Positions 20,631 through 61,111 of a stretch of 64,000 bases of DNA are shown here, piece by piece; position 1 is the stretch's first letter, and every line of letters begins with the position of its first letter. The translations under genes and the position numbers were made by a program. The notes below the pieces were generated by a model. It did no database searches. It saw nothing but the letters and a program-made list of their open reading frames with translations, and was not told where the DNA came from. This DNA comes from Mustelus asterias (Eukaryota), in the NCBI RefSeq assembly GCF_964213995.1, contig NC_135808.1:43338001-43402000 (forward strand), given 5' to 3'.

Positions 20631-20667
20631 CCATAAACTTTTGGAGCGCTGCTCCTTCGTCAGATGG
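20631..20667 (-). ncRNA. Minimal type-I hammerhead motif, degenerate (GAAA changed to AAAA)
   Basis: CCAT CTGACGA A GGAGC AGC GCTCC AAAA GTT T ATGG. Confidence 0.65.
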
Positions 20668-20995
20668 AGTGGAAATGTGCTCTCAAACAGTTGAGCAGAA
20701 CAGCTGAGCAGAAACTGAAAGCCAAGTTCCGCACACATGAGGACGGCCTAAACCGGGATGTTGGATTTATGTCACATTATCAGTAACCCCCACAGCTTGC
20801 CTCCTGGACTTGCAGAATCTCACTAGCTGTTCTGTCTGGAGACAATGCACATCTCTTTAACCTGTGTTTAATGCTCCCTCCACCCACATTGTCTGTACCT
20901 TTAAGACCTGGCTGGCTGTAGGGATTCGCATTCTAATCAGTATTCTGTAACTTGATTTTGTGTCTCTGTGCACTGTTTGAGAGCACATTTCCACT

Positions 20996-21032
20996 CCATC
21001 AGACGAAGGAGCAGCGCTCCGAAAGCTTATGG
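20996..21032 (+). ncRNA. Minimal type-I hammerhead motif with one core mutation (CUGA changed to CAGA)
   Basis: CCAT CAGACGA A GGAGC AGC GCTCC GAAA GCT T ATGG. Confidence 0.7.
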
Positions 21033-22651
21033 TATTTGCTACCAAATAAACCTGTTGGACTTTAATCTGGTGTTATGAGACTTCTTTCTATGGCTAAGCC
21101 AGTTCTCCACCCATCTAGCTAGCTCACCTTTTATCCCGTGATATTTAACCTTTTGCACCAGCCTGCCATGAGGGACCTTGTCAAACGCTTTACTAAAATC
21201 CATATAGACGAAATCCACGGCCCTTCCCTCGTCAATCGTTTTTGTCACCTCCTCAAAAAACTCAACCAAATTTGTGGTGTCTTTGGACTATCAGAGCTTT
21301 TGATAAAGTCCCTCATAAGAGGTTAGTGGGGAAAATTAAAGCACCTGGGATATGGGTAATGTATTGGCATGGGTCAAGAATTGCTTGACAGACAGGAGAC
21401 AGAAAGTGGGAATAAATGGATCTTTTTCTGAGCAGCAGGCAGCGACTAGTGAGGCACCGCAGCGATCAGATCTTGGGCCCCAGCTGTTCACAATGTATAT
21501 AAATCACCTGGATGAAGAGACGAAAGGTAACATTAACAAGTTTGCTGACGACACAAAACGGGATGGAATTGTGAATTGTGACGAGGATGCAAGGAGGCTT
21601 CAAGGTGATTTAGACAAATTGAGTGAGTGGGGCAAACACATGGCTGATGCAGAATAATGTGGATAAATATGAAGTTATACACTTTGGTATGAGAAACAGA
21701 AAGAGTACAACTTACATAGTGATATATTGGGAAATATGGATGTACAAAATGGATCTGGGCGTCCTTGTACACTAGTCAATGAGAGTGGAGAGGCAGGAAA
21801 TTCAGAAGGCAGATAGTATGTTGACCTTCATTGCAAAAGGCTGTGAGTTCAGAAATAGGGATGTCTTAATGCAGTTATCCCGGGCCTTGGTGAGACCACA
21901 CCTGTCGTATTGTGAGCAGTTTTGGTCTCCCTGCCAAAGAAATGATATACTTGCCACAGAGGCAGTGCAGCGGAAGTTTCTTCGGCTGATATCGGGGTTG
22001 GTGGGACTGTCAACAAAGAACAAAGAAGAAAGAAAATTACAGCACAGGAACAGGCCCTTCGGCCCTCCAAGTCCGCACCGACCATGCTGCCTGACTGAAC
22101 TAAAACCCCCACCCTTCTGGGGACCATTTCCCTCCATTCCCATCCTAATCTAATCTAATCTACTAGTATTTGTCAAGATGCCCCTTAAAAGTCACTCTTG
22201 TATTTGCTTCCACTGTTGGAAAGGGTGCAGAGGAGATTTACCAGGATGTTGTCTGGTATGGTGGGAAAATCGTATGAGGAAAGGCTGAGGGGCTTGAGGT
22301 TGTTTTCGTTAGAGAGGAGAAGGTTAAGAGGTGACTTAATAGAGGCATACAAGATGATCAGAGGATTAGATAGGGTGGATAGTGAGAGCCTTTTTCCTCG
22401 GATGGTGTTGGCTAGCACGAGGGGACATAGCTTTAAATTGAGGGGTGAGAGATATAGGACAGATGTTAGAGGTAGGTTCTTTACTCAGAGAGTAGTAAGG
22501 GCGTGGAATGCCCTGCCTGCAGCAGTGGTGGACTCGTCAACGTTGAGAGCGTTCAAGTGGTTATTGGATAGAACATAGAACATAGAACAGTACAGCACAG
22601 AACAGGCCCTTCGACCCACGATGTTGTGCCGAGCTTTATCTGAAACCAAGA

Positions 22652-25555
22652 TCAAGCTATCCCACTCCCTATCATCCTGGTGTGCTCCATGTGCCTATCC
22701 AATAACCGCTTAAATGTTTCTAAAGTGTCTGACTCCACTATTACTGCAGGCAGTCCATTCCACACCCCAACCACTCTCTGCGTAAAGAACCTACCTCTGA
22801 TATCCGTCCTGTATCTCCCACCACGAACTCTATAGTTATGCCCCCTTGTAATAGCTCCATCCACCCGAGGAAATAGTCTTTGAACGTTCACTCTATCTAT
22901 CCCCTTCATCATTTTATACACCTCTATTAAGTCTCCCCTCAGCCTCCTCCGCTCCAGAGAGAACAGCCCTAGCTCCCTCAACCTTTCCTCATATGACCTA
23001 CCCTCCAAACCAGGCAGCATCCTGGTAAATCTCCTCTGCACTCTTTCCAGCGCTTCCACATCCTTCTTATAGTGAGGTGACCAGAACTGCACACAATATT
23101 CCAAATGTGGTCTCACCAAGGTCCTGTACAGTTGCAGCATAACCCCACGGCTCTTAAACTCCAACCCCCTGTTAATAAAATCTAACACACTATAGGCCTT
23201 CTTCACAGCTCTATCCACTTGGGTGGCAACCTTTAGAGATCTGTGAATATGGACCCCAAGATCTCTCTGTTCCTCCACAGTCTTCAGAACCCTACCTTTG
23301 ACCCTGTAATCCACATTTAAATTTGTCCTACCAAAATGAATCACCTCACATTTATCAGGGTTAAACTCCATTTGCCATTTTTCAGCCCAGCTTTGCATCC
23401 TATCTATGTCTCTTTGCAGCCTACAACAGCCCTCCACCTCATCCACTACTCCACCAATCTTGGTGTCATCAGCAAATTTACTGATCCACCCTTCAGCCCC
23501 CTCCTCTAAGTCATTAATAAAAATCACAAAGAGCAGAGGACCAAGCACTGATCCCTGCGGCACACCGCTAGCAACCTGCCTCCAATCCGAAAATTTTCCA
23601 TCGACCACCACCCTCTGTCTTCGGTCAGACAGCCAGTTACCTATCCAATCGGCCAACTTTCCCTCTATCCCACACCTCCTCACTTTCATCATAAGCCGAC
23701 CATGGGGGACCTTATCAAACGCCTTACTAAAATCCATGTATATGACATCAACTGCCCTACCTTCATCAACACACTTAGTTACCTCCTCAAAAAATTCTAT
23801 CAAATTTGTGAGGCACGACTTGCCCTTCACGAATCCGTGCTGACTATCTCGGATTAATCCGCATCTTTCTAAATGGTCGTAAATCCCATCCCTAAGGACC
23901 CTTTCCATCAATTTACCAACCACCGAAGTAAGACTAACCGGTCTATAATTACCAGGGTCATTCCTATTCCCTTTCTTAAACAGAGGAACAACATTCGCCA
24001 TTCTCCAGTCCTCTGGCACCATCCCCGTGGACAGCGAGGACCCAAAGATCAACGCCAAAGGCTCTGCAATCTCATCCCTTGCCTCCCACAGAATCCTAGG
24101 ATACATTTCATCAGGCCCAGGGGACTTATCGACCTTCAGTTTATTCAAAACTGCCAAGACATCCTCCCTCCGAACATCTATTTCCTCCAGCCTATTAGCC
24201 TGTAACACCTTCCCTTCCTCAAAAACATGGCCCCTCTCCTTGGTGAACACTGAAGAAAAGTATTCATTCATCACCTCGCCTATCTCTACTGACTCCATAC
24301 ACAAGTTCCCACTACTGTCCTTGACCGGCCCTAACCTCACCCTGGTCATTCTTTTATTCCTCACATAAGAGTAAAAAGCCTTGGGGTTTTCCTTGATCCG
24401 ACCCGCCAAGGACTTCTCATGTCCCCTCCTAGCTCTCCTAAGCCCCTTTTTCAGCTCATTCCTTGCTAACTTGTAACCCTCAATCAAGCCATCTGAACCT
24501 TGTTTCCTCATCCCTACATAAGCTTCCCTCTTCCTTTTCACAAGACATTCCACCTCTTTTGTGAACCATGGTTCCCTCACTCGGCCATTTCCTCCCTGCC
24601 TGACAGGAACATACCTATCAAGGACATCCAGTATTTGTTCCTTGAAAAAGTTCCACTTTTCATTAGTTCCTTTCTCTGACAGTTTCTGTTCCCAACTTAT
24701 GCCCCCTAATTCTTGCCTAATCGCATCGTAATTACCCCTCCCCCAATTGTAAACCTTGCCCTGCCGTACGGCCCTATCCCTCTCCATTGCAATAACAAAA
24801 GACACCGAATTGTGGTCACTATCTCCAAATTGCTCTCCCACAACCAAATCTAACACTTGGCCCGGTTCATTTCCCAGTACCAAATCCAATGTGGCCTCAC
24901 CTCTAGTCGGCCCATCCACATATTGTGTCAGGAAACCCTCCCGCACACACTGCACAAAAACTGCCCCATCCAAACTATTTGATCTACAAAGGTTCCAATC
25001 AATATTTGGAAAGTTAAAGTCCCCCATGACAACTACCCTGTGACCCCCACACATATCCATAATCTGCTTAGCAATTTCTTCCTCCACATCTCTATTACTA
25101 TTTGGGGGCCTATAGTAAACTCCTAGCAACGTGACCGCTCCTTTCCTATTTCTAACTTCAGCCCATATTACCTCAGTGTGCAGATCTCCCACGAAGTGCC
25201 TTTCCGCAGCCGTTAAACTATCCTTGATTAACAATGCCACTCCGCCACCTCTTTTACCAGCTTCCCTACACTTAGTGAAACATCTATACCCCGGAACGTC
25301 CACCAACCATTCCTGTCCTTGTTCTACCCACGTCTCCGTAATGGCCACAACATCGTAGTCCCAAGTACCAATCCACGCCCCAAGTTCATCTACCTTGTTC
25401 CGGATGCTCCTTGCATTGAAGTAGACACACTTCAACCCACCTTCCTGTCTACCAGTACCCACCCTTGACCCTGATACCTTCCCCAATACCTCACCACCCT
25501 CACTGACTTCTGGACTACAACTCCCTTTCCCACTCCCCTGACAAATTAGTTTAAA
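22652..25555 (-). CDS. CR1 ORF2: APE endonuclease plus reverse transcriptase, intact, no N-terminal AUG
   Basis: CVYFNARS, ITETW, YRPP, GDFN, LDLVL, SDHN, QHGF, PQGSVLGP, FADD. The track start at 25666 is TTG. Confidence 0.95.
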   Translation of the reverse strand, partial: FKLICQGSGKGSCSPEVSEGGEVLGKVSGSRVGTGRQEGGLKCVYFNARSIRNKVDELGAWIGTWDYDVVAITETWVEQGQEWLVDVPGYRCFTKCREAGKRGGGVALLIKDSLTAAERHFVGDLHTEVIWAEVRNRKGAVTLLGVYYRPPNSNRDVEEEIAKQIMDMCGGHRVVVMGDFNFPNIDWNLCRSNSLDGAVFVQCVREGFLTQYVDGPTRGEATLDLVLGNEPGQVLDLVVGEQFGDSDHNSVSFVIAMERDRAVRQGKVYNWGRGNYDAIRQELGGISWEQKLSEKGTNEKWNFFKEQILDVLDRYVPVRQGGNGRVREPWFTKEVECLVKRKREAYVGMRKQGSDGLIEGYKLARNELKKGLRRARRGHEKSLAGRIKENPKAFYSYVRNKRMTRVRLGPVKDSSGNLCMESVEIGEVMNEYFSSVFTKERGHVFEEGKVLQANRLEEIDVRREDVLAVLNKLKVDKSPGPDEMYPRILWEARDEIAEPLALIFGSSLSTGMVPEDWRMANVVPLFKKGNRNDPGNYRPVSLTSVVGKLMERVLRDGIYDHLERCGLIRDSQHGFVKGKSCLTNLIEFFEEVTKCVDEGRAVDVIYMDFSKAFDKVPHGRLMMKVRRCGIEGKLADWIGNWLSDRRQRVVVDGKFSDWRQVASGVPQGSVLGPLLFVIFINDLEEGAEGWISKFADDTKIGGVVDEVEGCCRLQRDIDRMQSWAEKWQMEFNPDKCEVIHFGRTNLNVDYRVKGRVLKTVEEQRDLGVHIHRSLKVATQVDRAVKKAYSVLDFINRGLEFKSRGVMLQLYRTLVRPHLEYCVQFWSPHYKKDVEALERVQRRFTRMLPGLEGRSYEERLRELGLFSLERRRLRGDLIEVYKMMKGIDRVNVQRLFPRVDGAITRGHNYRVRGGRYRTDIRGRFFTQRVVGVWNGLPAVIVESDTLETFKRLLDRHMEHTRMIGSGIA

Positions 25556-26472
25556 CCCCCCTGAAGAGCCGTAACAAATTTCCCTCCGAGGATATTGGTG
25601 CCCCTCTGGTTCAGGTGCACCCCGTCCTGTTTGTACAGGTCCCACCTTCCCCAGAACGTGTTCCAATTATCCACGTATCTGAAACCCTCCCTCCTACACC
25701 ATCCCTGCAACCACATATTTAACTGCACTCTCTCCCTGTTCCTCAACTCGCTATCACGTGGTACCGGCAACGTACCAGAGATGACCACATGTTTCGTCTT
25801 GGCTCTCAGCTTCCAGCCCAGCTCCAGAAATTCCTGCTTTAAATCCCCGTCCCTTCTCTTACCTATGTCATTGGTACCAATGTGCACCACGACTTGTGAC
25901 TGTTTCCCCTCCCCCTTCAGAATCTGGAAAACACGGTCTGAGACATCACGGACCTTGGCATCCGGTAGGCAACATACCATCCGTGAGTCTCTTTTGCTGC
26001 CACAGAACCTCCTATCTATCCCTCTAACTAACGAGTCCCCAATAACTATCGCCCTCCCGCTCTCCCCCTTTCCCTCCCGAGCCACAGAGACGGACACAGT
26101 GCTGGAGATCCTCTCACTGCGGCTCCCCACTGGTATGTCATCCCCCTCAACCGTATCCAAAGCGGAATACTAGTTGCTAAGGGGAACGACCACCGGGGAT
26201 CCCTGCACGGACTGCTTCTTCCCAGCCCCTCTCACCGTCACCCATCTGTTTTCAATCCTCGGAGTAACTGTATTCCTAAAGCTTGTGTCTATGGCCATCT
26301 CTGCGTCCCTGATGATCCTAAGTTCATCCAACTCCAGCTCCAGTTCCCTAACACGGTTTTGGAGGAGCTGCAGATGGGTGCACTTCCCACAGGTGTAATC
26401 AGTAGGGACACTGTCGTCGTACCTCACCTCAAACATAGTGCAAGAGGAACATTGCACTGCCTGCACACCCAT
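25546..26472 (-). CDS. CR1 ORF1: zinc finger, leucine zipper and SGNH esterase; one in-frame TAG at 26170-26172
   Basis: CxxC...CxxC, LQNRVRELELELDEL, IVIGDSLV, VHIGTND, DGVH. The two track ORFs are in the same frame. Confidence 0.92.
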
Positions 26473-26665
26473 CCCCTCTAGATACCTTGCCAGTACAAGG
26501 TAGAAAGTGCAAAAATGAATTCAACTCACCCCTGCTCGCCCTTTCAGCCTAAGCCCTGTGAGCCAAAGTCTTATAGCTCACACTCTGCTTCCCACACACT
26601 ACACTGCCCGCTCCCGACGCTGCCCGCTGTATACTGCAGCCTACCTTTTATACTTCACGCGCTTA

Positions 26666-27086
26666 AAAAACCCTTCCCAGACTCCTTTGCTGCCCACTTC
26701 TAGTTTTCACTTTAAACTTGAAAAACTGCTGTTAAAGTAAAGGCCAAAAAAATACACACACTAGCTGACTAATTAAATAAATAAACAATTCAATTAATCT
26801 CTCACCAGCACTGCTGCTTGCAATCACCCCTCTCAGCTTGCTCCAGTGGATCAATGAGGGGGAACCTCCCAGGTAACTGACTTTTAAAGTTAAAATAAAA
26901 ACCCTTCCCAGACTCCTTTGCTGCCCACTTCTAGTTTTCACTTTAAACTTGAAAAACTGCTGTTAAAGTAAAGGCCAAAAAAATACACACACTAGCTGAC
27001 TAATTAAATAAATAAACAATTCAATTAATCTCTCACCAGCACTGCTGCTTGCAATCACCCCTCTCAGCTTGCTCCAGTGGATCAAT
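26666..27086 (-). repeat. Tandem 5' UTR repeat of the CR1, period 231 bp
   Basis: 26666-26855 appears identical to 26897-27086. Confidence 0.95.
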
Positions 27087-30070
27087 CATGATAAACATAT
27101 GGATGATATTGGAATAGCGTAGATTAGAGGGGCTTTAGATTGGTACCACTGGTCGGCGCAACATCGAGGGCCGAAGGGCCTGTACTGCGCTGTAATGTTC
27201 TATGTTCTACTACCTCACCCGGCAGTGAGTTCCAGGCACCCACCACCCTCTGTGTAAAAAATCTGCTTCGTACATCTCCTTTAAACCTTGCCCCTCGCAC
27301 CTTAAACCTATGCCCCCTAGTAATTGACTCTTCCATCCTGGGAAAAAGCTTCTGACTATCCACTCTGTCCATGCTCCTCATAATCTTGTAGACTTTTATC
27401 AGGTCTCCCCTCAATCTCCACCACTCCAATGAGAACAAACCAAGTTTCTCCAACCTCTCTTCATAGCTAATGCCCTGCATACCAGGCAACATCCTGGTAA
27501 ATCTTTTCTGTACCCTCTCCAAAGCCTCCACATCCTTCTGGTAGTGTGGCGACCAGAATTGAACACTATATTCCAAGTGCGGCCTAACTAAGGTTCTATA
27601 AAGCTGCAACATGACTTGCCAATTTTTAAACTCAATGCCCCGGCCGATGAAGGCAAGCATGCCGTATGCTTTCTTGACTATCTCCCCCACCTGCATTGCC
27701 ACTTTCAGTGATCTGTGTACCTGTACACCCAGATCCCTCTGCCTATCAATACTCTTTAAGGTTCTGCCATTTACTGTATATTTCCTATCTGCATTAGACC
27801 TTCCAAAATGCATTACCTCACATTTGTCCGGATTAAACTGCATCTGCCATCTCTCCGCCCAAGTCTTCAACTGATCTATATCCTGCTGTATCCTCTGATG
27901 GTCCTCATCTCTATCCACAAATCCACCAATCTTTATGTTGTCCGCAAACTTACTAATCAATCCAGTTACATTTTCCTCCAAATCATTTATATATATTACA
28001 AACAGCAAAGGTCCCAGCACTAATCCCTGAGGAACACCACTTGTCACAGCCCTCCATTCAGAAACACACCCTTCCACTGCCACCCTCTGTCTTCTTTGAC
28101 CAAGCTAGTTCTGTATCCACCTTTGCCAGTTCACCTCTGATCGCATGCGACTTCACCTTCTGCACCAGTCTACCATGCGGGACCTTATTAAAGGCCTGAC
28201 TGAAGTCCATGTAGACAACTGCCCTACCCTCATTAACCATCTTCCTTGAAAAACTCGATCAAGTTAGTGAGACATGACCTCCCCTTCACAAAACGATGTT
28301 GTCTCTCGCTAATATGGCCACTTATTTCCAAGTGAGAGTAAATCCTGTCTCAAAGAATCCTCTCAAATAATTTCCTTATCACTGACGTAAGGCTCACCAG
28401 CCTGTAATTACCTGGATTATTCTTGCCACCCTTCTTAAACAGAGGAACAACATTGGCTATTCTCCAATCCTCTGGACCTCCCCTGTAGCCAGTGAGGATA
28501 CAAAAATTTCTCTCAAGGCCCCAGCAATTTCCTCCCTTGCTTCTCTCAGTATTCTGGGGTATACCATATCAGGCCCAGGGGATTTGTCTACCTTAATATT
28601 TCTCAAAAACCCCAATACCTCCTCCTTTTTGATCTCAACATGACTCAAACTATCTACACACCCTTTCCCAGACTCATCATCCATCAAGTCCTTCTCTTTG
28701 GTGAATACTGATGCAAAGTACTCATTTAATACCTTGCCTACTTCCTCTGGCTCCACGCATAGATTCCCTCCCCTGTGCTTGAGAGGGCCAACCCTCTCCC
28801 TGGCTACCCTCCTGCTCTTTATAAATGTATAAAAAGCTTTGGGATTTTCCTTCATCCTGCTGGCCAATGATTTTTCATGACCTCTTTTAGTCCTCCTTAC
28901 TCCTTGCTTAAGTTTCTTTCTACTTTCCTTGTGTTCCACACTTGCTTCGTGTGTTCCCAGCCTCCTAGCTTTGACAAATGCTTCCTTTTTCTCTTTGACT
29001 AGGCTCACAATATCTCTCGTTATCCAAGGTTCCCAAAACTTGCCATACTTATCCTTCATTCTTACAGGAATGTGCCGGTCCTGAGTCCCTATCAACTTAC
29101 ACTTGAAAGCCTCCCACATGCCAGATGTTGATTTGCCCTCAAATATCTGCCCCCAATCTTCAGTTCTTGCCTAATAGTGTTGTAATTAGCCTTCCCCCAA
29201 TTTAGCACCTTAACTTGAGGACTACACTTATCTTTAATCATCAGTACCTTCAAGCTTACTGAATTTTGGTCACTGTTCCCGAACTGCTCCCCTACTGAAA
29301 CGTCGACCACCTGGTCGGGCTCATTTCCCAATACCAGGTCCAGTATGGCCCCTTCTCGAGTTGGACTATCTACATACTGTTTCAGGAAGCCCTCCTGGAT
29401 GCTCCTTACAAACTTTGCCCCATTTACCCCCCCTAGCACTAAGTGAGTCCTGGTCAATATCGGGGAAGTTAAAATCTCCCACCACAACAACCCTGTTACT
29501 TTTACACCTTGCCAAAATCTGCCTACATATCTGTTCTTCTATCTCCTGCTGCCAGTTGGGCGGCCTATAGTAAACCCTCAACATTGTGACGGCACGCTTC
29601 CTATTCCTGAGCTCTACCCATATTGCCTCGCTGTCCTGTGAGGACAGATTAGTTCAACTGGGCCTGTATTGGCCAGAGTTTACAAAGATGAGAGGAGAGC
29701 TTATTGAAACAGATAAAATTCTAACAGGACTGGATAGACCAGATGTAGGGAGGATATTGGGGAATTTAGAACCAGGGGACACAGTCTCAGGGTACAGGGT
29801 AGACCATTTAGGACTGAGAGGAGCAGAAATTTCTTCACTCAGTGGGTGGTGAACCTGTGGAATTCTCTATCACTGTGGATATCAAGTCACTGAATATATT
29901 CAAGAAATAGATTATCTTTTTAGATTTAAACACATTAATGTCATGGCATCAAGGGATATGGGGAATGAGTGGGAATATAACATTGAGATAAAGGCTCAAC
30001 CATGATCACATTGAATGGCAGAGCAGAATTGAAGGGCTGAATGGCCTACTCCTGCTACTAGATTCTATGT

Positions 30071-31793: not shown

Positions 31794-31796
31794 TTT

Positions 31797-33134: not shown

Positions 33135-33810
33135 ATTGTACAGGGCAATGGTGAGACCACTTCTGGAGTATTGTGTTCAAATTGGTCTCCTTACTTAAGG
33201 AAAGTCGTAAATGCATTAGAAGCAGTTCAGAGAAGCTTTACTGACCAATACCAGAAATGGGCGGGTTGTCTGATGAGAAAAGGTTGGACAGGTTAGGCTT
33301 ATATACACTTGATTTTGGAAGAGTACTTCTAAAGAAGGCGACTTGATCAAAATCTTTAAGTTCCTGAGAGGTATTGATAGGGTGGATGTGGAGAGGATGT
33401 TTCCTCTTGTGGAGAATGTAGAACTAGGGGTCACTGTTTGAGAATAAGGGGTTGCCCATTGAAGACGAAGGGTCATGAGTCTCTGGAACTCTCTCCCTCA
33501 AAGGCAGTGGAAGCAGAGTCTCTGAATATTTTTAAGAAGTCTCACAACACCAGGTTAAAGTCCAACAGGTTTATTTGGTGTCACGAGCTTTCAGAACGCT
33601 GTTCCTTCATCAGGTGATCATCAATATTTTTAAGACAGAGCTAGATAGATTCTGGATTAATAAGAGGTGAAACATTATGGGGAGGGCGGGCGGGGGGGGG
33701 GGGGGGGGGGGGTAGACAGCAATGTGAGGTTGAGGCTAAAATCAGATCAGCCATGGGAGAGCAGGCTTGAGGGACCGAGTGGCCTATTCCTGCTCAGGAT
33801 TCATATGTTT
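33135..33810 (+). mobile_element. Old CR1 3' fragment
   Basis: GTGAGACCACTTCTGGAGTATTGTGTTCAA followed by 3' UTR remnants. Confidence 0.8.
33581..33617 (-). ncRNA. Minimal type-I hammerhead, intact core, inside an 86-bp insertion (33537-33622)
   Basis: TCAC CTGATGA A GGAAC AGC GTTCT GAAA GCT C GTGA; TSD AATATTTTTAAG. Confidence 0.85.
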
Positions 33811-34623: not shown

Positions 34624-34998
34624 GGGCGGCATGATGGCACAGTGGTTAGCACTGCTGCCTCACAGCGCCAGGGACCCTGGTTCAATTCCGGCCTCGGGTC
34701 ACTGTCTGTGTGGAGTTTGCACAGTAAGAAGTTTTACAACACCAGGTTAAAGTCCAACAGGTTTATTTGGCAGCAAAAGTCTGTGTGGAGTTTGCACATT
34801 CTCCCCGTGTCTGCATGCCTCCCATGGTCCAAAGATGTGCGAGTTAGGTGGATTGGCTATGCTAAATTGCCCCTTAGTTTCAGGGGGATTAGCAGGGTAA
34901 ATGCGTGAGGTTACGGGAGTAGAGCCTGGGTGAGATTGTGGCTGGTGTAGACTCCATGGGCCAAATGGCCTCTTTCTGCACTGTAGGGATTCTATGAT
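34624..34998 (+). mobile_element. HE1-type SINE carrying a 55-bp Penelope pLTR-end insertion (34724-34778, - strand)
   Basis: HE1 head, core and tail; 20-bp duplication GTCTGTGTGGAGTTTGCACA at 34704-34723 and 34779-34798. Confidence 0.9.
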
Positions 34999-41110: not shown

Positions 41111-41603
41111 ATGAGATCAAGTCATCCCAATCTCAAACTTAGTATTTAACATTCTCATGCTCCTCCTCCTCCTTCCCCCACCCCCACTGGATAATGGAAC
41201 CCTGCCCATCCCACAGATAAGGGGAACACGCCCCCCAAATACAGAAGGGGACCCTCACCACACCACACAAAGCCCTCCCATGGATAAGGGGACCACACTC
41301 CCCCCAAAATGTCGAAGTAGAACATCCCCACAATCAAGGAGGGTAACAACCCCCCTCCCACCAGTACCTGCTGCAAGTACCCCCTGGGAGTGCCCCTTGC
41401 ATGTGTACCCTGGCACGGGGCTACAGGCACCTCAGTGTCCCCGGATTGGTGATCACAACTGGATTTCGCTTTTGAAAACCAGTAGTGATTCGCGCTAATG
41501 CGACACCAGGCTGACAGAGGAGGATGAAACATCGTGGGTGGATGTTACTGCCTCAAGACAAGTAATAATTGTTTGTTAATTTATTACAATGTATGGAAAT
41601 CAC

Positions 41604-41640
41604 TCACCTGATGAAGGAGCAGCGCTCTGAAAGCTTGTGA
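41604..41640 (+). ncRNA. Minimal type-I hammerhead, intact core, inside a 115-bp insertion (41605-41719)
   Basis: TCAC CTGATGA A GGAGC AGC GCTCT GAAA GCT T GTGA; TSD ATGGAAATCACT. Confidence 0.85.
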
Positions 41641-41788
41641 TTCCAAATAAACCTGTTGGACTTTAACCTGGTGTTGGGAGACTGTGTCCACCCCAGTCCA
41701 ATAATGGCATCTCAACATCATGGAAATCACTGGCAGGGGTTTGTTTCTGAGATCTTTTGGCACAAATCCTGTTTTTGGCCATTTAAGT

Positions 41789-49455: not shown

Positions 49456-49464
49456 TTTTTGTCC

Positions 49465-49740: not shown

Positions 49741-50363
49741 AGGGTTTTGTTGCAGTTACTTGGCCCAGCCTACACTGACACTGCCCAGATACAGCAGGGC
49801 GAGGGGGTGATGGAGGAGAGTGGAGAGAGACAGAGGGGAAGAAACTCAGGGCCGAGTGGGGTTGGGGTGGAAGGGGTTGAGAAGAGAGACGATGGAGGTG
49901 GGGAGGTAGTGAGACAGACAGAGAGAGAGAGAGAGACTGGGAGGGAGAGAAAAATGGTGGGAGGAGGGAGAGAGAGAGATTCAGGGGGAAGGAAACAAAA
50001 AGACAGACACTGAGGACAGAGAGAGAGAGAGAAAGGGACTGGGAGGGAGAAACAGAGGGAGAGAATGGAGGGAGAGTCTGCTTATTTCCATATTGAGTTT
50101 CAAAAACGAGTCATACTTGATCTGAAATATATTTTTCTGTCTCCACTGAGGCTGCCAAAACTGCTCCATTTTTCTGGCATTTTCCATTTTTATTTCTGAT
50201 CTCCAGAATCCACAGAATTTAGCTTTTATAATCCTTTTGGGGCTTACGGGATCTTGCTGTGCACAAATTTACCTGCAGCTTTTCCCGCACTTACAATGAC
50301 GACTGCATTTCAGAATTCAGTTTTTTTATTCTGGGTATGAATCTCTCTCTGTCCCTGTCCATT

Positions 50364-53030
50364 CATAGAACATAGAAAAACTACAGCACAAACAGGCCCT
50401 TCGGCCCACAAGTTGCGCCGGTCGTGTCCCTACCTACCTAGGCTTAGAAATAGACTTACCTATAACCCTCAATCCTATGAAGTCCCATGTACTCATCCAG
50501 GAGTCTCTTACAAGACCCTATCGAGTTTGCCTCCACCACCACTGACGGCAGTCGATTCCACTCACCCACCACCCTCTGAGTGAAAAACTTACCCCTGACA
50601 TCTCCTCTGTACCTACTCCCCAGCACCTTAAACCTGTGTCCTCTCGTAGCAACCATTTCAGCCCTGGGAAAAATCCTCTGAGAATCCACCCGATCTATAC
50701 CTCTCAACATCTTGTACACCTCTATCAGGTCACCTCTCATCCTTCGTCTTTCCAAGGAGAAAAGACCGAGCTCCCTCAATCTATCCTCATAAGGCATGCC
50801 ACCTAATCCAGGCAACATCCTTGTAAATCTCCTCTGCACCCTTTCTATGGCTTCCACATCCTTTCTGTAATGAGGCAACCAGAACTGAGCACAGTACTCC
50901 AGGTGGGGTCTGACAAGGGTCTTATAAAGCTGCATCATTATCCCACGACTCCGAAACTCAATCCCTCAATTGATGAAGGCCAGCACACCATACGCCTTCT
51001 TAACCACCTCCTCCACCTGCAAGGCCGATTTAAGAGTCCTATGGACCCGGGCCCCAAGGTCCTTCTGATCCTCTACACTGCTAAGAGTCTTACCCCTGAT
51101 ATTATACTCCTTCATCCCATTTGACCTGCCAAAATGGACCACTACACATTTATCCAGACTGAAGTCCATCTGCCACTTCTCCGCCCAGTCTTGCATCCTA
51201 TCTATGTCACTCTGCAGCTTCTGACATCCCTCCAAACATTCCACAACACCACCAACCTTTGTGTCGTCGGCAAACTTGCCAACCCATCCCTCCACTTCCT
51301 CATCCAGGTCATTTATGAAAATGACAAACAACAAGGGTCCCAGAACAGATCCCTGGGACACTCCACTGGTGACCGACCTCCATTCAGAAAAAGACCCATC
51401 TACAACCACTCTCTGCCTTCTGCAGGCAAGCCAGTTCTGGATCCACAAGGCAACAGCCCCTTGGATCCCATGCCCTCTCACTTTCTCGAGAAGTCTTGCA
51501 TGGGGGACCTTATCGAACGCCTTGCTGAAGTCCATGTAAACCACATCTACCGCTTTTCCTTCGTCAATGTGTTCAGTCACATTTTCAAAGAACTCCACCA
51601 GGCTCGTAAGGCACGATTTGCCTTTGACAAAGCCATGCTGACTACTTTTGAGCATATTAAACCTCTTTAAATGTTCATAAATCCTGTCCTTCAGGATCTT
51701 CTCCATCAACTTACCAACCACTGAGGTTAGACTCACCGGTCGGTAATTTCCTGGGCTATCAATATTCCCCTTCTTGAATCTAGGAACCACATCCACAATC
51801 CTCCGGAACCTCTCCCGTCTCCATCGACGATGCAAAGATCATCGCCAGAGGCTCTGCAATCTCTTCCCTCGCCTCCCACAGTAACCTGGGGTACATCCCA
51901 TCCAGTCCCGGGGACTTATCTATCTTGATGCTATTCAAAATTTCCAACACATCTTCTTTCTTAATGTCCACATACTCAATCTTTTTAGTCTGCCTCAATC
52001 CTATAGTACAACCACCCAGGTCTTTTTCCACCGTGAATACCGAGGTAAAATATTCATTAAGCACCTCTGCTATTTCTTCCGGTTCTGTACAGACTTTCTC
52101 ACCTTCACATTTTATAGGTGCTATACCTTCACATCTCATCCTTTTACTCTTCACATATTTATAGAACGCCTTAGGGTTCTCCTTAATCTTACCTGCCAAG
52201 TCCTTCTCGTGACCCCTTCTGGCTCTCCTAATTTCCTTCTTAAGACCCTTCCTACAAACCGTATACCCATCTAGATCCCTATCATCGCCTAGCTCTCTGA
52301 ACCTTTTGTACGCTTTCCTTTTCTTTTTGACTAGGTTCAGCACGGCTTTCGTGCACCACGGTTCCCGTAACCTACCAAAACCTCCCTGTCTCATCGGAAC
52401 GCTGTCATGCAGACCTCCAGACAAACAGTCCTTGAAAATCTGCCACCTTACTTCGGTACTTTTCCTCGAGAATACCTCCTTCCAATCAACACCTCTAATC
52501 TCCCGCCTGATGGTTTCATATTTCCCCTTACTCCAGATAAACACTTTCCTAGCTTGCCTGATCCTATCTCTTTCCAATGCTAGCGTAAAGGAAATAGAGT
52601 TATGATCACTATCCCCAAGATGCTCCCCCACTGAGAGATCCGACACCTGTCCGGGCTCATTAGCCAGTACCAGATCGAGTACAGCCTCTCCTCTTGTAGG
52701 CTTATCCACATGCTGTGTCAGGAAACCTTCCTGAACACACCTAACAAACTCCTCCCCATCCAATCCCTTACCCTAGGGATATTCCAATCGATGTTTGGGC
52801 AACTAAAGTCTCCCATCACAACAACCCTGTTATTACTGCATCTCTCCAGGATCTGTTTCCCTATCTGCTCCTCAACATCCCTGTTACTGTTGGGCGGCCT
52901 ATAGAAAACTCCCAGCAAAGTTATCGACCCCTTCCCACTCCGAACTTCCACCCACAGAGACTCCGTAGACAATCCCTCCACGGCATCCACTTTCTCTACA
53001 GCTGTGACACTATCCCTGACCAGCAGTGCC
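50364..53030 (-). mobile_element. CR1, 5'-truncated within APE, several frameshifts
   Basis: ORFs 52718-53032, 51780-52763, 50966-51835 and 50456-50938. Confidence 0.95.
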
Positions 53031-53294
53031 ATTTTACGAGCACCGGATTTCCAGCACAGTCAGCCTCTGTAGGGGTTCTATGATTCTATTCTATGATTAA
53101 CTCTGAGGTCGGGAGAAAATGAGAGATACTGGTGGAGAGTGGAGGAAGAGATGGCAGTTCAACAGGAACAGGTAATAGGAGGGGAGAGGGAGCTGAGTGC
53201 ATCAGATGCAATAAGTGGTAAGTGGAATACTTGGTGTAACATTTACAGTAGAATCTGCAATCCTGGGTTGAGTGAGTACAGGGGCAGTGAATGG

Positions 53295-53585
53295 GGGAGG
53301 GACAGTGGCACAGTGATTAGCCAGGGACCCGGGTTCAATTCCAGCCTTGGGTCACTGTCTGTGCGGAATCTGCACATTCTCCCCATGTCTGTCTGGGTTT
53401 CCTCCGGGTGCTCCAGTTTCCTCCCACTGTCTGAAAGATGTGCAGGTTAGGTGAATTGGCCATGCTAAATTCTCCCTCAGTGTAACCGAACAGGTGCCGG
53501 AGTGTGGCGACTGGGGGATTTTCACAGTAACTTCATTGCAGTGTTAATGTAAGCCTACTTTTGACACTAATAAATGAAACTTTAA
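53295..53585 (+). mobile_element. HE1-related SINE with an alternative 3' tail
   Basis: HE1 head and core, then CTCCCTCAGTGTAACCGAACAGG...GACACTAATAAA. Confidence 0.75.
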
Positions 53586-54218
53586 AAAATACAGTTGCAG
53601 GGGTGTTTGTGCTTTTATTAACAGAGCAGAAACAGATAGGGGGATAGAGGGAAAAACAAATTGAAATGAGAAGTTAAATGAGAGGGAGATACTGTGGACG
53701 TCTCCAGTGTTTAGTCACTGCCCAACTCCCAGTCTCTGGAGAAAAGCCTTTCACCCATCTAACTCCTCTTGCACAATTCGAATCCAACGATTCTCAATCC
53801 TGGGACAATGAGATTTGCACCTTTCGCAGCCAGTTCAAACTAAATTGTACACTGTCTGCCCAGACTGGGGCCTCGTCCTGTCTCCAAGCCTCTGTTCAGT
53901 CGCTGAGAATTGCAGGAAATCTTCTCAACAATGGGCCTTGGGAAAGACAAATTGTCAGATTGTCAAAAAACTGCTCCCTGGAATCTATCTGCTCAGTTGG
54001 ATTAATGTTAGAATGGGCAAAGAAATGAGAGCACTCTTAAACCACACCCCCACCATCTGAAGAAGGGTGATTTGGGCTTGAAATGTTTACTCTTTTTCTC
54101 TCTTCACAGATGTTGCCAGACCCACCGAGTTCAGCCAGCATTTTCTGTATTATTCCAGATTAAGAAGTTTAACAACACCAGGTTAAAGTCCAACAGGTTT
54201 ATTTGGTAGCAAAAGCCA

Positions 54219-54255
54219 CACAAGCTTTCGAGGCTCTGAGCCCCTTCTTCAGGTG
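54219..54255 (-). ncRNA. Minimal type-I hammerhead, intact core
   Basis: CAC CTGAAGA A GGGGCT CAG AGCCTC GAAA GCT T GTG. Confidence 0.85.
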
Positions 54256-54597
54256 AGTGGGAATTCTGTTCACAAACAGAACTTATAAGACACAGACTCA
54301 ATTTACATGAATAATGGTTGGAATGCGAATACTTACAACTAATCCAGTCTTTAAGAAACAAAACAATGGGAGTGGAGAGAGCATCAAGACAGGCTAAAAA
54401 GATGTGTATTGTCTCCAGACAAGACAATACACATCTGGAGACAATACACATCTTTTTAGCCTGTCTTGATGCTCTCTCCACTCCCATTGTTTTGTTTCTT
54501 AAAGACTGGATTAGTTGTAAGTATTCGCATTCCAACCATTATTCATGTAAATTGAGTCTGTGTCTTATAAGTTCTGTTTGTGAACAGAATTCCCACT

Positions 54598-54634
54598 CAC
54601 CTGAAGAAGGGGCTCAGAGCCTCGAAAGCTTGTG
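54598..54634 (+). ncRNA. Minimal type-I hammerhead, intact core
   Basis: CAC CTGAAGA A GGGGCT CAG AGCCTC GAAA GCT T GTG. Confidence 0.85.
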
Positions 54635-55084
54635 TGGCTTTTGCTACCAAATAAACCTGTTGGACTTTAACCTGGTGTTGTTAAACTTCTTACTGTGTTT
54701 ACCCCAGTCCAACGCCGGCATCTCCACATCATTATTCCAGATTTCCAGCATTGTGTATTTTATTCCTGAAAGATAGTTTGGGTGAGTAAATGGAGATGGG
54801 AGAGTGAATGAGCTATAGGATCTTGCTGTATCTTTTATTGTCAAAGTCCTGACCGTGTTTATCAATTTTCTTTGCTCTTTCCAGATTGGTGTCTCATTGT
54901 GGAATTCATTTTCAGAAACAGAGAAAAAAAACATTTGGCTGCATGGATTTCTTTTAACGGAGGAAGGGACGTGTTTGTGCAAACAGTTTGAGAATTACAC
55001 AGTGTAAACCCGGATATTTTAATCTCTCCATGAAATAACTCATTTAAATGTGGATCAAAGCTAGCAGAATGTTTTTCAATTGCT

Positions 55085-55432
55085 TGTGTTGCTAGCTGGG
55101 CCAGCATTATGTTGCCCATCACTAATTGCCCTTTAAGCCCTGTAGTTTACTCAGTTTCCTCATTTCAGAGGGCAGTTAAAAGCCAATCACATTGCTAAGG
55201 TCTGGAGATACATGTCGGCCTGACCAGGTAAGGATGGCAGATTTCCTTCCTTAAAGCACATTAGCAAATGGGTACAACACTCAACAATGGTTTCATTGTC
55301 ATCATTAGATGATGCTTTTTCCAGATTTTTATTGAACTCAAATTCCACTATTCTGCCATGGTGGGATTTGAACCTGGGTCCCAAAAGCATTACCCTTCTT
55401 CCAATGATGATACCACTATGCCACTGCCTCTC
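55085..55432 (-). mobile_element. tRNA-type SINE of the second family, decayed
   Basis: Similar to 40752-41110. Confidence 0.7.
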
Positions 55433-57827
55433 CATAAGCTTTTTGCAATTAGCCAATACTGGGTGATAACCAATGTGTCTGTGTAAAGTTGGTCTGGGAA
55501 CCACTAAGTCATAATGCTCATTTGGAGAGCTGGTGTACACGAGATGGGCCAGAATGACTTCCATTTGTGCGATTACTATTCTGTGATACTGTGCTCTTGC
55601 ATGAATCTTTCAGCCCTCACCCTTTACTCTTTCCCCTTGTCCAAAGTCTCTTTTCCTTCCTCAAGGGGAGAGGATGGTAGGAGCGCAAGAGTCCATTGGG
55701 AAAGCGGAGACAATGTGGGCTGGGGACCCATCTCCTTTCTGTCTCTCAATGCCTGAATCTGTCTCTCTGATTCTCCTCTCTCTCCCTTCTCAACCTTCCC
55801 TCTGATGCCTCTTTCTCACTCTCTCTCTATCCCTGTTTGTCTTCTTGGTTTTATCTCTCTGTTGCTCTCTGTCTCTGCCTCACTCTCTGTCTCACTCTCT
55901 TTTCCATCTATCTATCTTTAGCTGTTTGATCTCTTGCTTGGAAAATTGACCTATTTTCATTTTAAATGTTAACTTCTAATTTCCCCTGTGAAGATCCCTT
56001 CTAATTCCCAGCCCAATGAATAGCCTTCCCTGTATAACCGCGACCATCAATAGTTCCATCTGCAACTCTCGGCCAGTGCAGAGCTTCCTGTCTAATCATC
56101 TTCAGAAACCCCACAGTAACAGATTAAAGATTTTCTACTGCTGAATGGGAATCAGAGTCATTCTCCCTGTGTCTTCGTGGGTTTCCTCCAGGTGCTCTGG
56201 TTTCCTCCCACAGTCCCAAGATGTGTAGGTTAGGTGGATTAGCTATGCGTGGGGTTACATGGTGGCACAGTAGTTAGCACTGCTGCCTCACAGCGCCAGG
56301 AACTGAGTTTGATTCCTGGCTTGGGTCATTGTCTGTACAGGTACACTGAGGGAGAGTTTAGCTTGGCCATTTCACCTAACCAGCATGTCTTTGGACTGTG
56401 GAAGGAAACCTGGAGCAAACCCATACATACACAGGAAGAGTGTTTCAAGTGCTCACCTTAATGCTTCATAAATGTTGTGAGGGTCCCAGCGTCTACCACC
56501 CTTTCAGGCAAAGAGTTTCAGATTCCCACCACCCTGTGGCTGAAAAAGCTTATCCTCAAATCCCCCGAAGACTCTTGCCCCCTTTCCTTAAATCTATGCC
56601 CCCTGGTTATGGACCCCTCTACTGTGGAGAAATATCTCTTCCCAGTTACCGTATCTATGTCCATCAATTTTGTACACCCTCAACCTTCTCTGCTCCAAGG
56701 AAAACAATCCCAAATTCTTTACTGGTCTATCTCTCTCTATCTTTTTGTGTGTTGCTCATTCATTATATTTGCTTCACATCAACAATCTTTCTCTCTCTTA
56801 ACACCCGCTCTCTATTTCTGCATCTGTCTGCCCTTCTGTCTCTGCTACTCTCTCTCAGGTCTGTTCTTCTCTGTGCTCTGTGTTTTTATCCATCTGTGTT
56901 CACACTGCTTATAAATTGAGACAACAGAAGTCATTAAAGTGAACTAAAGCATCTCCACACCATACTGTGTCATTGACCCTGGAAGGAGCAGGGCAAAGCT
57001 TGGGGACTTCACCCCGAAGAGCTGGACCCAGTCACTAGGCCCTATCTTCGCTGTGGAATCTTGGAAATGCTTGCTTCAAAGGATGTGTGGAAAGGCTCTA
57101 TGAGCTGCAGTCTTGGTGCCCTGTGGCTGGCTCTCTGTTAAGCCGTGGGAAAGCATAGAGTTGGGAGCACTCTCTGGGTGATAACTCAAGCACAGAAGAA
57201 CCCTGGTTGTGCTGCCAGGGGATGTGACAGAGACCAAGGGTAGCGATTGATACTTAGACCAGCTCACGCAGAATGCTAACACCCAGAAATGGCCCAATTT
57301 TGGCCTACTTATAATCACAGAATTGTTGTGGTGCAGAATTAGACCATTCGGCCCATCGTGTCTACACCAGCTTTCCAAACAAGCATCATGACTTAGTGCT
57401 ATTCCCCTGCCTTTTCCCTGTACCCCTGCACATCGATTATATCACATGCCTTCTTGAATGTCTTGATTGAACCTGCCTCCACCTCATTTCCAGGCAGAAC
57501 ATTCCAGATCCGAACCACTCGCTGTGTGAAAAAGTCAATGGAAGTGAGTTCTCGATCGAGTTCAGCGCACACGTTGACCTGTGAACAGGCATGATGGGCA
57601 TCGATGTTAGCAAGGAACACAATGAATTGTTAACTGTGCTGCTAATAAACAATGTCGGACTCAAATTGGAAGATCCTAGTGTTGGAAAGGAGATCCCTCA
57701 CCCCTCCACTTCCTTCGTTACTCGCAGACCCCTCTCTCTGTTCCTAATGTCCCTTCATTCTGTCATGTTCCTGATCAAACTACTTCTAGTTTCTTCTTTA
57801 TTTCTCAAATCCGGCACAGTTTATTCT

Positions 57828-58810
57828 TGCCGACGACATGAAGGTTGGTGGTGTTGTGGATAGTTTGGAGGGATGTCAGAAGCTGCAGAGTGACATAGAT
57901 AGGATGCAAGACTGGGCGGAGAAGTGGCAGATGGACTTCAACCTGGATAAATGTGTAGTGGTCCATTTTGGCAGGTCAAATGGGATGAAGGAGTATAACA
58001 TCAAGGGTAAGACTCTTAGAGGATCAGAAGGACCTTGGGGTCCGGGTCCATAGGACTCTTAAATCGGCCTCGCAGGTAGAGGAAGTGGTTAAGAAGGCGT
58101 ATGGTGTGCTGGCCTTCATCAATCGAGGGATTGAGTTTAGGTGTTGGGAGATAATGATGCAGCTTTATAAGACTCTCGTCAGACCCCACTTGGAGTTAAG
58201 AGTCCTATGGACCCGGTCCCCAAGGTCCTTCTGATCCTCTACACTGCTAAGAGTCTTATCCTTGATATTATACTCCTTCATCCCATTTGACCTGCCAAAA
58301 TGGACCACTACACATTTATCCAGGTTGAAGTCCATCTGCCACTTCTCCACCCAGTCTTGCATCCTATCTATGTCACGCTGCAGCTTCTGACATCCCTCCA
58401 ACCTATCCACAACGGAGAGACGAAGGATGAGAGGTGACCTGAGAGAGGTGTACAAGACGTTGGGAGGTATAGATCGGGTGGATTCTTGGAGGCTTTTTCC
58501 CAGGGCTGAAATGGCTGCTACAAGAGGACACAGGTTTAAGGTGCTGGGGAGTAGGTACAGAGGAGATGTCAGGGGTAAGTTTTTCACTCAGAGGGTGGTG
58601 GGTGAGTGGAATCGGCTGCCGTCAGTGGTGGTGGAGGCAAACTCGATAGGGTCTTTTAAGAGACTTCTGGATGAATACATGGGACTTGATAGGATTGAGG
58701 GTTATAGGTAAGCCTATATATAAGCATAGGTAGGTAGGGACATGACCGGCGCAACTTGTGGGCCGAAGGGCCTGTTTGTGCTGTATTTTTTCTATTTTCG
58801 ATGTTCTATA
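57828..58810 (+). mobile_element. CR1 3' part with an internal inverted duplication (58196-58413)
   Basis: FADD region through to the 3' tail; same family as 50364-53030. Confidence 0.88.
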
Positions 58811-58811
58811 A

Positions 58812-60422
58812 TATTAATGGTAGGACTCTTGGCAGAGTGGAAGATCAGAAGGATCTTGGGGTCCGAGTTCATAGGACGCTCAAAGCAGCTGTGCAGGTTA
58901 CATAGAACATAGAACAGTACAGCACAGAACAGGCCCTTCGGCCCACGATGTTGTGCCGACCTTCATCTGAAACCAAGATCAAGCTATCCCACTCCCTACC
59001 ATCCTGGTGTGCTCCATGTGCCTATCCAATAACCGCTTAAATGTTCCTAAAGTGTCTGACTCCACTATCACTGCAGGCAGTCCATTCCACACCCCAACCA
59101 CTCTCTGCGTGAAGAACCTACCTCTGATATCCTTCCTATATCTCCCACCATGAACCCTATAGTTATGCCCCCTTGTAATAGCTCCATCCACCCGAGGAAA
59201 TAGTCTTTGAACGTTCACTCGATCTATCCCCTTCATCATTTTATAAACCTCTATTAAGTCTCCCCTCAATCTCCTCCGCTCCAGAGAGAACAGCCCCAGC
59301 TCCCTCAACCTTTCCTCATAAGACCGACACTCCAAACCAGGCAGCATCCTGGTAAATCTCCTCTGCACTCTTTCCAGCGCTTCCACATCCTTCCTATAGT
59401 GAGGTGACCAGAACTGCACGCAATATTCCAAATGCGGTCTCACCAAGGTCCTGTACAGTTGCAGCATAACCCCACGGCTCTTAAACTCCAACCCCCTGTT
59501 AATAAAAGCTAACACACTATATGCCTTCTTCACAGCTCTATCCACTTGAGTGGCAACCTTTAGAGATCTGTGGATATGGACCCCAAGATCTCTCTGTTCC
59601 TCCACAGTCTTCAGAACCCTACCTTTGACCCTGTAATCCACATTTAAATTTGTCCTACCAAAATGAATCACCTCACATTTATCAGGGTTAAACTCCATTT
59701 GCCATTTTTCAGCCCAGCTTTGCATCCTATCTATGTCTCTTTGCAGCCTACAACACTGTTGTTCTTCTGTGGTTGTGAGGCTGTGGTTAAGAAGGCGAAT
59801 GGTGTACTGGCCTTCATCAATCGAGGAATTGAGTTTAGGAGTCGTGAGATAATGTTGCAGCTATATAAGACCCTGGTCAGACCACACTTGGAGTACTGTG
59901 CTCAGTTCTGGTCGCCTCATTACAGGAAGGATGTGGAAGCCATAGAAAGGGTGCAGAGGAGATTTACAAGGATGTTGCCTGGGTTAGGGAGCATACCTTA
60001 TGAGGATAGGTTGAGTGAGCTCGGCCTTTTCTCCTTGGAGAGACGAAGGATGAGGGGTGACCTGATAGAGGTGTATAAGATGTTGAGAGGTATTGATCGA
60101 GTGGATAGTCAGAGGCTTTTTCCCAGGGCTGAAATGGTTGCCACAAGAGGACACAGGTTTAAGGTGCTGGAGAGTAGGTACAGAGGAGATGTCAGGAGTA
60201 AGTTTTTCACTCAGAGGGTGGTGGGTGCGTGGAATGGGCTGCCAGCAATGGTAGTGGAGGCGGATTCGATAGGGTCTTTTAAGAGACTTTTAGATAAGTA
60301 CATGGAACTTAGTAAGATAGAGGGTTATAGGTAAGCCTAGTAATCGCTAAGGTAGGGACGTGTTCGGAACAACTTTGTGGGCTGAAGGACCTGTATTGTG
60401 CTGTAGTGTTTCTATGTTTCTA
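58812..60422 (+). mobile_element. CR1 3' part in two pieces (58812-58898 and ~59770-60422)
   Basis: GRTLGRVEDQKDLGV... resumes as AVVKKANGVLAFIN...; tail TTTCTATGTTTCTA. Confidence 0.88.
58899..59756 (-). mobile_element. CR1 3' copy of the young family at 22571-27089, nested
   Basis: 248-aa ORF nearly identical to the ORF2 C-terminus of that element. Confidence 0.95.
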
Positions 60423-60756
60423 ACTCCCATGACTTGCCAGGGCTTGCAAAATCTCACTAACTGTCCTGTCTGGAGACAATACACATCTCTTTAACCTGTA
60501 CTTAACCCTCTCTCCACTCACATTGTCTGTACCTTTAAGACTTGATTACCTGTAAAGACTCACATTCCAACCATTGTTTTGTAAATTGAGTTTTTGTCTT
60601 TATAGGCCCTGTTTGTGAACACACCCACTTACCTGACGAAGGAGCAGCGCTCTGAAAGCTAGTGGGTTTGCTACCGAATAAACGTGTTGGACTTTAACCT
60701 GGTGTTGAGACTTCTTACTGTGTTTACCCCAGTCCAACGCCGGCATCGCCACATCA
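60421..60756 (+). mobile_element. Solo Penelope pLTR with 3' tail
   Basis: CTGTCTGGAGACAATACACATCT...hammerhead...AATAAA...CCCCAGTCCAACGCCGGCATCGCCACATCA. Confidence 0.88.
60630..60664 (+). ncRNA. Minimal type-I hammerhead, intact core
   Basis: TAC CTGACGA A GGAGC AGC GCTCT GAAA GCT A GTG. Confidence 0.8.
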
Positions 60757-60767
60757 GAGATGTTCTA

Positions 60768-60809
60768 CCCAGAGACTGCTGAGTCACAGGCTCCTTGTAT
60801 TCTCATTGG
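60768..60809 (+). promoter_or_regulatory. MHC-type X1-X2-Y promoter module
   Basis: CCCAGAGACTGCTG (X2 TGAGTCA)-N20-CTCATTGG, with ATTGG 89 nt upstream of the ATG. Confidence 0.7.
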
Positions 60810-60893
60810 ACATTCCTTTGCCATTGAAGGAATCAGCAGCATGAGCGCTGGGTACAGAGAGTGACTGGAGTGTGAACAAGGAAGTGAAGGAAG

Positions 60894-60939
60894 ATGAGGT
60901 TAATTCTGCTGGCGACTCTGTGGGGAGGCCTCTCTGAAG
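60894..60939 (+). CDS. Candidate exon 1 (signal peptide MRLILLATLWGGLSE-G) of an MHC or MHC-like gene; the rest lies beyond the window
   Basis: AAGATGA start context, basic-then-hydrophobic leader, phase-1 donor AAG|GTGAGC, and an XY module upstream. Confidence 0.6.
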
Positions 60940-61074
60940 GTGAGCTGTTTTCTGGGTCACAGAGCTGGCAGTCTCAGCAGTGACCCCAGGAGAGGTGGTC
61001 ACTGGGAGGAACACAGTAAGAAGTTTAACAACACCAGGTTAAAGTCCAACAGGTTTATTTGGTAGCAAAAGCCA

Positions 61075-61111
61075 CACAAGCTTTCGAGGCTCTGAGCCCC
61101 TTCTTCAGGTG
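61075..61111 (-). ncRNA. Minimal type-I hammerhead in the pLTR, intact core
   Basis: CAC CTGAAGA A GGGGCT CAG AGCCTC GAAA GCT T GTG. Confidence 0.87.

Follow-up and report, generated by a model that had tools for sequence, protein, structure and literature searches.

The eight hammerhead motifs in a 64,000-nucleotide stretch of the Mustelus asterias genome (contig NC_135808.1, positions 43,338,001 to 43,402,000; "the window" below) are best read as minimal type-I hammerheads in the ends (pLTRs) of a highly abundant Neptune-type Penelope-like retrotransposon (PLE), where they likely cleave only as pairs within a tandem transcript; the scattered copies are probably inert. We give this reading a probability of roughly 0.7. 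The hammerheads were correctly identified and their kind is known. What is new about them is limited to membership of a further lineage, a very high number of copies, and their convenience for testing. The original prediction assigned them to the pLTRs of PLEs, and this was borne out when the parent element itself was found.

The motifs lie at 20631, 20996, 33581, 41604, 54219, 54598, 60630 and 61075 (left-end coordinates on the plus strand), with those at 20631, 33581, 54219 and 61075 on the minus strand. Both strands of window positions 11701-64000 were searched with a structure descriptor made up of stem I, CUGANGA, an optional extra base, stem II, GAAA NN UH and stem I, and it matched these eight and nothing else; the core is intact in six, and the other two depart from it at a single position. 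In 30 dinucleotide shuffles the average was 0 for intact matches and 0.03 for those with one mismatch. The positions are those first reported. The first two motifs had been called mutated, and they are: 20996 carries U4A, and 20631 carries G12A plus a change of AGCU to AGUU that breaks the palindrome. The stem pairs and the N7 and H17 identities listed at the time likewise agree with the sequence. The pair G10.1-C11.1 is present as G-C in five of the eight, C11.1 having changed to U at a CpG site in 33581, 41604 and 60630. This pair, AGCU and an intact core occur together in only three (54219, 54598 and 61075), whose motifs are identical and which form one near-identical subfamily. A scan of the window against Rfam at E<=5 found no hammerhead among its 15 matches; microRNA matches at 54350-54503 were rejected, being under the gathering score and reflecting an inverted repeat.

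The idea of an eight-member family stands in that all eight motifs belong to one repeat family, but they come from only six insertions and only the three just named are fully canonical. Two insertions contribute two motifs each, one per arm. The first, at 20537..21104, is a head-to-head inverted PLE insertion of the CCAU/AUGG subfamily, with a short left arm that has a long tail and a longer right arm; it holds the two mutated hammerheads, at 20631..20667 (minus strand, C3 at 20663) and 20996..21032 (plus strand, C3 at 21000). The second, at 54160..54733, is a head-to-head inverted insertion of the youngest subfamily. Its 264-nt arms show 99% complementarity, and about 12 bp of target are duplicated. 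The insertion holds fully canonical hammerheads at 54219..54255 (minus, C3 54252) and 54598..54634 (plus, C3 54601); going by hammerhead numbering, we take the predicted cut of the latter to fall between 54631 and 54632. Two further copies are solo pLTR stubs with the C11.1 to U change, one beginning at stem I (33533..33617, minus; hammerhead 33581-33617, C3 33613) and the other just before it (41601..41720, plus; hammerhead 41604-41640, C3 41608). The fifth insertion, with the same change, is a lone pLTR that shares 79% identity with the young element (60417..60757, plus; hammerhead 60630-60664, C3 60633, H17=A).

The sixth insertion is large, extending from 61001 to about 65876, and its two arms, which match at 99.8% over 2,299 nt, both contain an ORF that is 5'-truncated but open, together with a motif at the 3' end. 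Its left arm comprises a 3' pLTR (61001..61393, minus) with a fully canonical hammerhead (61075..61111, minus; C3 61108) and a 5'-truncated PLE ORF of 727 open codons (61394..63577, minus) that shows Pfam RVT_1 (E 2.9e-10), a CX5CxxC linker and a GIY-YIG-type endonuclease motif. The inverted right arm starts in 63303..64000 (plus) and runs past the window to about 65876; it carries a ninth intact hammerhead, the partner of 61075, just past the window end (L001:2745, window-equivalent 65745). At the junction between the arms (63253-63321 and 63554-63600) an ORF piece of about 47 nt is duplicated, a trace of template switching, and the two arms begin 250 nt apart.

Five of the motifs thus lie in head-to-head arms on opposite strands, and motifs paired in this way cannot serve as the two ribozymes of one transcript. 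The earlier list omitted two features: a ribozyme-less stub of the same family that consists of tail only (34720..34779, minus), starting about 7 nt past the predicted cut, and a decayed ACGU-type motif with its tail, from an older family (54056..54144, plus), which is 73% identical to L088 and is interrupted by the 54160 insertion. Young insertions of the AGCU family inside older ACGU-stub tails, as in window positions 54056-54760, were also seen at three or more other loci (at least L097, L150 and L005); the element may favour the ends of other PLEs as insertion targets.

In the parent element, units of 3,097 bp follow one another head to tail, and each carries a single motif. The tandem arrays L053-L055 have three motifs each at 3,097-bp spacing, and the two adjacent units that were compared are 99.97% identical. 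An 80-aa query returned 3,846 candidates, and all 150 of the 150 scored were 100% identical, many of them in 913-codon open frames; the element is very young. Its first ATG, 99 nt downstream of the predicted cut (unlike the Anolis Poseidon element PAc, whose ORF starts inside stem II; PMC11167929), opens an 893-aa ORF with Pfam RVT_1 above cut-off, DKG, YIDD and YL..YIG motifs, and a CX5CxxC linker at aa 754-762 of 893. A Pfam search of this ORF gave no GIY-YIG match, so the endonuclease is called from its motif. Classified on its sequence by the definition in PMC8557442, the parent is a Neptune/Nematis-type EN+ PLE; Neptune is chosen over Nematis because of the linker motif and the report of Neptune as the vertebrate clade (bioRxiv 10.64898/2026.07.22.740005). 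The insertion traits of EN+ PLEs are present as well, with tandem and inverted insertions and tails in two end clusters. The likeness to the Neptune and Nematis elements described in PMC8557442 extends to the order of RT, CX2-5CxxC linker and GIY-YIG, to partial tandems, and to an inverted 5'-truncated copy and a one-sided tail of 30-40 bp. Fragments of more distant PLE families, with 34-56% identity to the young protein, occur at L024:1051-1486, L103:912-1094, L198:3759-4076 and L212:5-1138. Contigs of three other organisms carry the AGCU pLTR family with the same subfamily motifs (compared with L054:900-1700), so the family is shared beyond the source species; related pLTR sequence was present in four contig sets, and contigs cannot reveal RNA ends.

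Across the 3.68-Gb genome the core pattern gave 141,622 matches versus 26 for a reversed control, and these included 130,686 AGCU-type cores, 2,916 ACGU-type cores and 184 with an A/U-only inner pair. A sample of 151 arbitrarily placed 10-kb stretches (1.51 Mb, targeted loci excluded) held 51 exact core matches, where 53.6 were expected, and 112 tail-bearing copies; the core was intact in 60 of these 112, and 47 were fully canonical, or about 31 per Mb. The at least 130,686 copies found here can be set against the 4,000 of coelacanth and 9,000 of Xenopus given in PMC4209133, a comparison across different descriptors and assemblies, and 126,247 hammerhead motifs are given for axolotl in PMC7229834.

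The ACGU family is the older of the two (85% mean identity over 42 matches), and the inner palindrome in its 28 readable copies is CG in 12, CA in 10, TG in 5 and CT in 1. Almost all of its copies (L073-L102) are stubs of about 100-130 nt that start a few bases from stem I, and an inverted arm often accompanies them. A tblastn search of 232 loci yielded no parent ORF for this family, and an upstream similarity among 30 ACGU copies was rejected as a trace of the parent when it proved to be the inverted arm. Relaxing position 10.2 yielded 4,764 matches (control 446), the first 100 of which were almost all variants of the AGCU and ACGU families, and the first 100 of the 184 matches with A/U-only palindromes carry stems of these same families. 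With a descriptor requiring C11.1 and G10.1, no AUAU or AAUU family was seen.

Sequence variation was tallied in the 87 copies that retain the whole motif among 121 (112 sampled plus 9 in the window). The cleavage base is U in 58, A in 15, C in 14 and G in none. The original assertion that it is never G in the eight motifs very nearly holds genome-wide, where G17 amounts to 1,113 of 130,686 (0.85%). The extra A between 9 and 10.1 is found in 85 of the 87, and G10.1-C11.1 is G-C in 73 and G-U in 8. The inner palindrome is GC in 85, which supports the view that AGCU is common to all subfamilies of the family. In stem I, pair 1.1 is C-G in 62 copies, U-A in 16 and something else in 9, and pair 1.4 is paired in only 39; in stem II, pair 10.3 is A-U (45), G-U (25) or G-C (14), and pair 10.4 is G-C (80) or A-U (2). 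In a tree built from the 170 nt upstream of the motif in 49 long copies, among which two are long branches that were misassigned, there are three clusters that are 77-86% identical in this upstream region, with the CCAU/AUGG copies as one branch; all three clusters retain the core, the extra A and AGCU.

The covariation claimed at the outset is real inasmuch as compensatory and wobble-mediated changes do occur, but it was overstated, since the independent events are few. The C-G to U-A change in stem I is a single event in a single clade, and the A-U pair behind the proposed GGAAC/GUUCU type of stem II exists, but in only two of the 87 copies. Likewise, the switch between GC and CG in helix III is one comparison of two families, AGCU and ACGU. 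Judged from these sequences, structure has been kept across source lineages through few independent compensatory events. The C/U variation at N7, 11.1 and 17 falls at CpG sites and presumably represents decay.

The closest precedent is the set of minimal hammerheads described by Cervera and De la Pena (2014; PMC4209133) in the pLTRs of metazoan PLEs; their account includes the motif, the extra base, the palindromic 15.2-16.2, opposite-strand pairs, covarying families and the dimer model. The present motifs share with them a type-I core, the extra nucleotide between 9 and 10.1, G10.1-C11.1, a stem I that is short, dual motifs that lie on opposite strands at distances of 100-700 bp, and many covarying consensus families. 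In Fig. S3 of that paper the inner pairs are GC, CG, UA and AU, with GC and CG both present within Schistosoma mansoni, and its turtle (Chrysemys) motif has AGCUU and a downstream stretch similar to that found here. The entries of Fig. S3 and Table S1 that were covered include no cartilaginous fish. In that paper monomers were inactive and dimers weakly active, and according to supplement legend S6 disruption of the closing pair served as the mutant control.

The vertebrate non-LTR retrozymes offer a second comparison, as they too have type-I hammerheads in more than 100,000 copies per genome and cleave better as dimers (PMC7229834, bioRxiv 10.64898/2026.07.22.740005). Retrozymes, however, are described in these sources as short non-coding tandem repeats with canonical motifs and circular RNAs, whereas the 3.1-kb element of this study is autonomous and the copies are its ends, truncated or inverted. 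A retrozyme identity was rejected: the window copies are solo or inverted, and the 3,097-bp tandem unit is coding. Retrozymes have been reported in one chondrichthyan (bioRxiv 10.64898/2026.07.22.740005), and the excerpted text of PMC6155905 mentions sharks only for the name. The literature covered, with Repbase and Dfam outside that coverage, held nothing to the point on shark PLE hammerheads or on cross-family trans-activation.

The preferred reading, cleavage by pairs in tandem transcripts, can be put as follows. A tandem array would be read through into one transcript, in which two motifs 3.1 kb apart could swap stem-I strands in cis and join AGCU to AGCU in a 4-bp helix III. The element's own protein probably assists in forming the double hammerhead, judging from work described in PMC4209133 and PMC11167929. 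Slow or late cutting would free unit-length RNA with its 5' end about 100 nt ahead of the start codon. The RNA that is reverse transcribed is uncut at its 3' motif, as reverse transcription begins downstream of that motif, and dispersed copies would be by-products that decay without selection on the core.

Insertion junctions bear on several of these steps. All 56 of 56 core-intact motifs that were found without requiring downstream sequence continue past the cut, 55 of them with a full tail, so the RNA that was copied had not been cut there. The ends of the insertions lie some 50-110 nt beyond the predicted cut; of 121 copies, 118 fall into two end clusters (61 and 57 copies) separated by about 35 nt. 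Most insertions are 5'-truncated and many are head-to-head doubles; divergent pairs within 5 kb hold 74 of the 121 copies (background: 14 convergent pairs). The Anolis element PAc behaves in a similar manner: its 3' ends form two clusters beyond the motif, separated by 30-40 nt, it is organised in tandem, and uncut RNA is the main insertion substrate, with reverse transcription beginning at two internal sites (PMC11167929). PAc has been assayed experimentally, whereas the shark element is known from sequence alone. At the other end of the insertions, copy starts within 2 nt of the cut number 1 of 120 (1.5 expected), which is no enrichment in a sample too small to exclude an excess of a few percent in one subfamily. 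Starts at +1 to +8 number 8 of 120 versus 3.1 expected (p 0.013, in a bin chosen post hoc), and 6 of 120 fall at -39 to -30; stubs often begin at or just before stem I. Core mismatches in dispersed copies come to 26 of 957 and those in the adjoining tail to 39 of 2,436, both figures being bounded by the search, so the core is no better conserved than the tail, as expected for dead dispersed copies. The lack of enrichment at the cut counts against the preferred reading, as does the Anolis RNA-seq analysis, which did not find ends there (PMC11167929).

The same junctions can be read differently, in that the motif may be retained as a structural or protein-binding part of the pLTR, or as a selfish passenger, and hardly ever cut in vivo. 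The uncut state of all 56 intact motifs fits this well, as does that of stubs 33581 and 41604, which start at or just before stem I and are also uncut. In Anolis, core mutants insert normally in vitro, so that the motif is dispensable for insertion there (PMC11167929); Naiad PLEs, moreover, thrive without the motif (PMC8557442). Set against this, the Anolis motif does cleave when the element's protein is supplied, and only then (PMC11167929), and the catalytic positions and the avoidance of G17 hold across subfamilies that are 14-23% diverged and in the ACGU family, which is more than a purely structural role would require. We consider such a role unlikely.

A quite different view follows from the suggestion in the original prediction that the AGCU palindrome could let copies activate one another across subfamilies. 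Dispersed copies and element RNAs would then form a network of intermolecular double hammerheads, with compatibility set by helix III and stem I; the CAC/GUG-AGCU class would cross-activate, the CCAU/AUGG branch would be partly insulated, and the ACGU family would be orthogonal. The palindromic helix III does suit a dimer, as PMC4209133 had already described, and so is not new. The claim that the palindrome suffices did not hold up. Hammerhead topology has stem I exchanged in the double hammerhead, so partners must match there too, and its covariation limits cross-talk. With stem II folded as a local hairpin, as in the constrained folds, joining AGCU to AGCU yields a core only if the stem I 5' strand of one RNA pairs with the 3' strand of the other.

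Predicted compatibilities follow this geometry. Four CAC/GUG representatives make three Watson-Crick stem-I pairs at both cores in all combinations, and their heterodimers are predicted to lie -1.7 to +3.9 kcal/mol from the mean homodimer. Combining CCAU/AUGG with CAC/GUG puts a C-A mismatch beside one cut and a U-G pair at the other (+2.6 to +8.9 kcal/mol), and when AGCU meets ACGU, both inner pairs of helix III and the greater part of stem I disappear (+19 to +24 kcal/mol). About three quarters of the AGCU copies are thus predicted to be geometrically compatible, CCAU/AUGG copies poorly so and ACGU copies not at all. The near-homodimer energies within the CAC/GUG class, the C-G identity of pair 1.1 in most copies and the density of fully canonical copies are all favorable to a network in trans. 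Nevertheless, the partners would be held together by only some 10-12 intermolecular bp in three short helices. In a model lacking tertiary contacts, forcing the double hammerhead costs 1.7-7.1 kcal/mol relative to two folded monomers, and none of 13 homodimers adopted the active form when co-folded freely; these predictions also count against the pairing in cis of the preferred reading. Read-through RNA from a divergent pair would form a long hairpin that hides the motif, the core has been conserved no better than the tail in dispersed copies, and published activity is low even for dimers in cis (PMC4209133). We regard the network as very unlikely. Its more elaborate form, in which Penelope RNA and protein would activate some 100,000 compatible AGCU/CAC-GUG hammerheads in trans and these would cut the host transcripts that contain a sense copy, with CCAU/AUGG copies partly escaped and ACGU copies orthogonal, seems to us slightly less probable still. 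If true, trans-cleavage with one motif every 28 kb would constitute a genome-wide RNA-cutting system. That a repeat family produced the motifs by chance and that they do not function as hammerheads is barely credible: all copies trace to few source elements, so copy number by itself proves nothing, but the 13-position core, stems, extra A, G10.1-C11.1 and palindrome fit the minimal-hammerhead consensus (PMC4209133, Fig. S3), and two unrelated families in this genome share the architecture with different stems.

The genome offers a test bed for whether PLE hammerheads cut in vivo and for what. Its Neptune-type element is intact, very young and present in tandem arrays, every pair occurs in natural variants, and the palindromes of the two families do not match; the compatibility matrix predicts the outcomes of mixed dimers.

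Other repeats accompany the PLE copies in the window. Positions 1-11,400 are occupied by about 11.4 kb of pyrimidine-rich satellite with 8-22-nt units, which ends at a 200-N gap and gives very long spurious ORFs. Many CR1-like LINE copies, identified by eye from translations, lie between 15 and 60 kb, and one of them (22652-26481, minus) has a 1,004-codon open ORF2 with remnants of ORF1 upstream.
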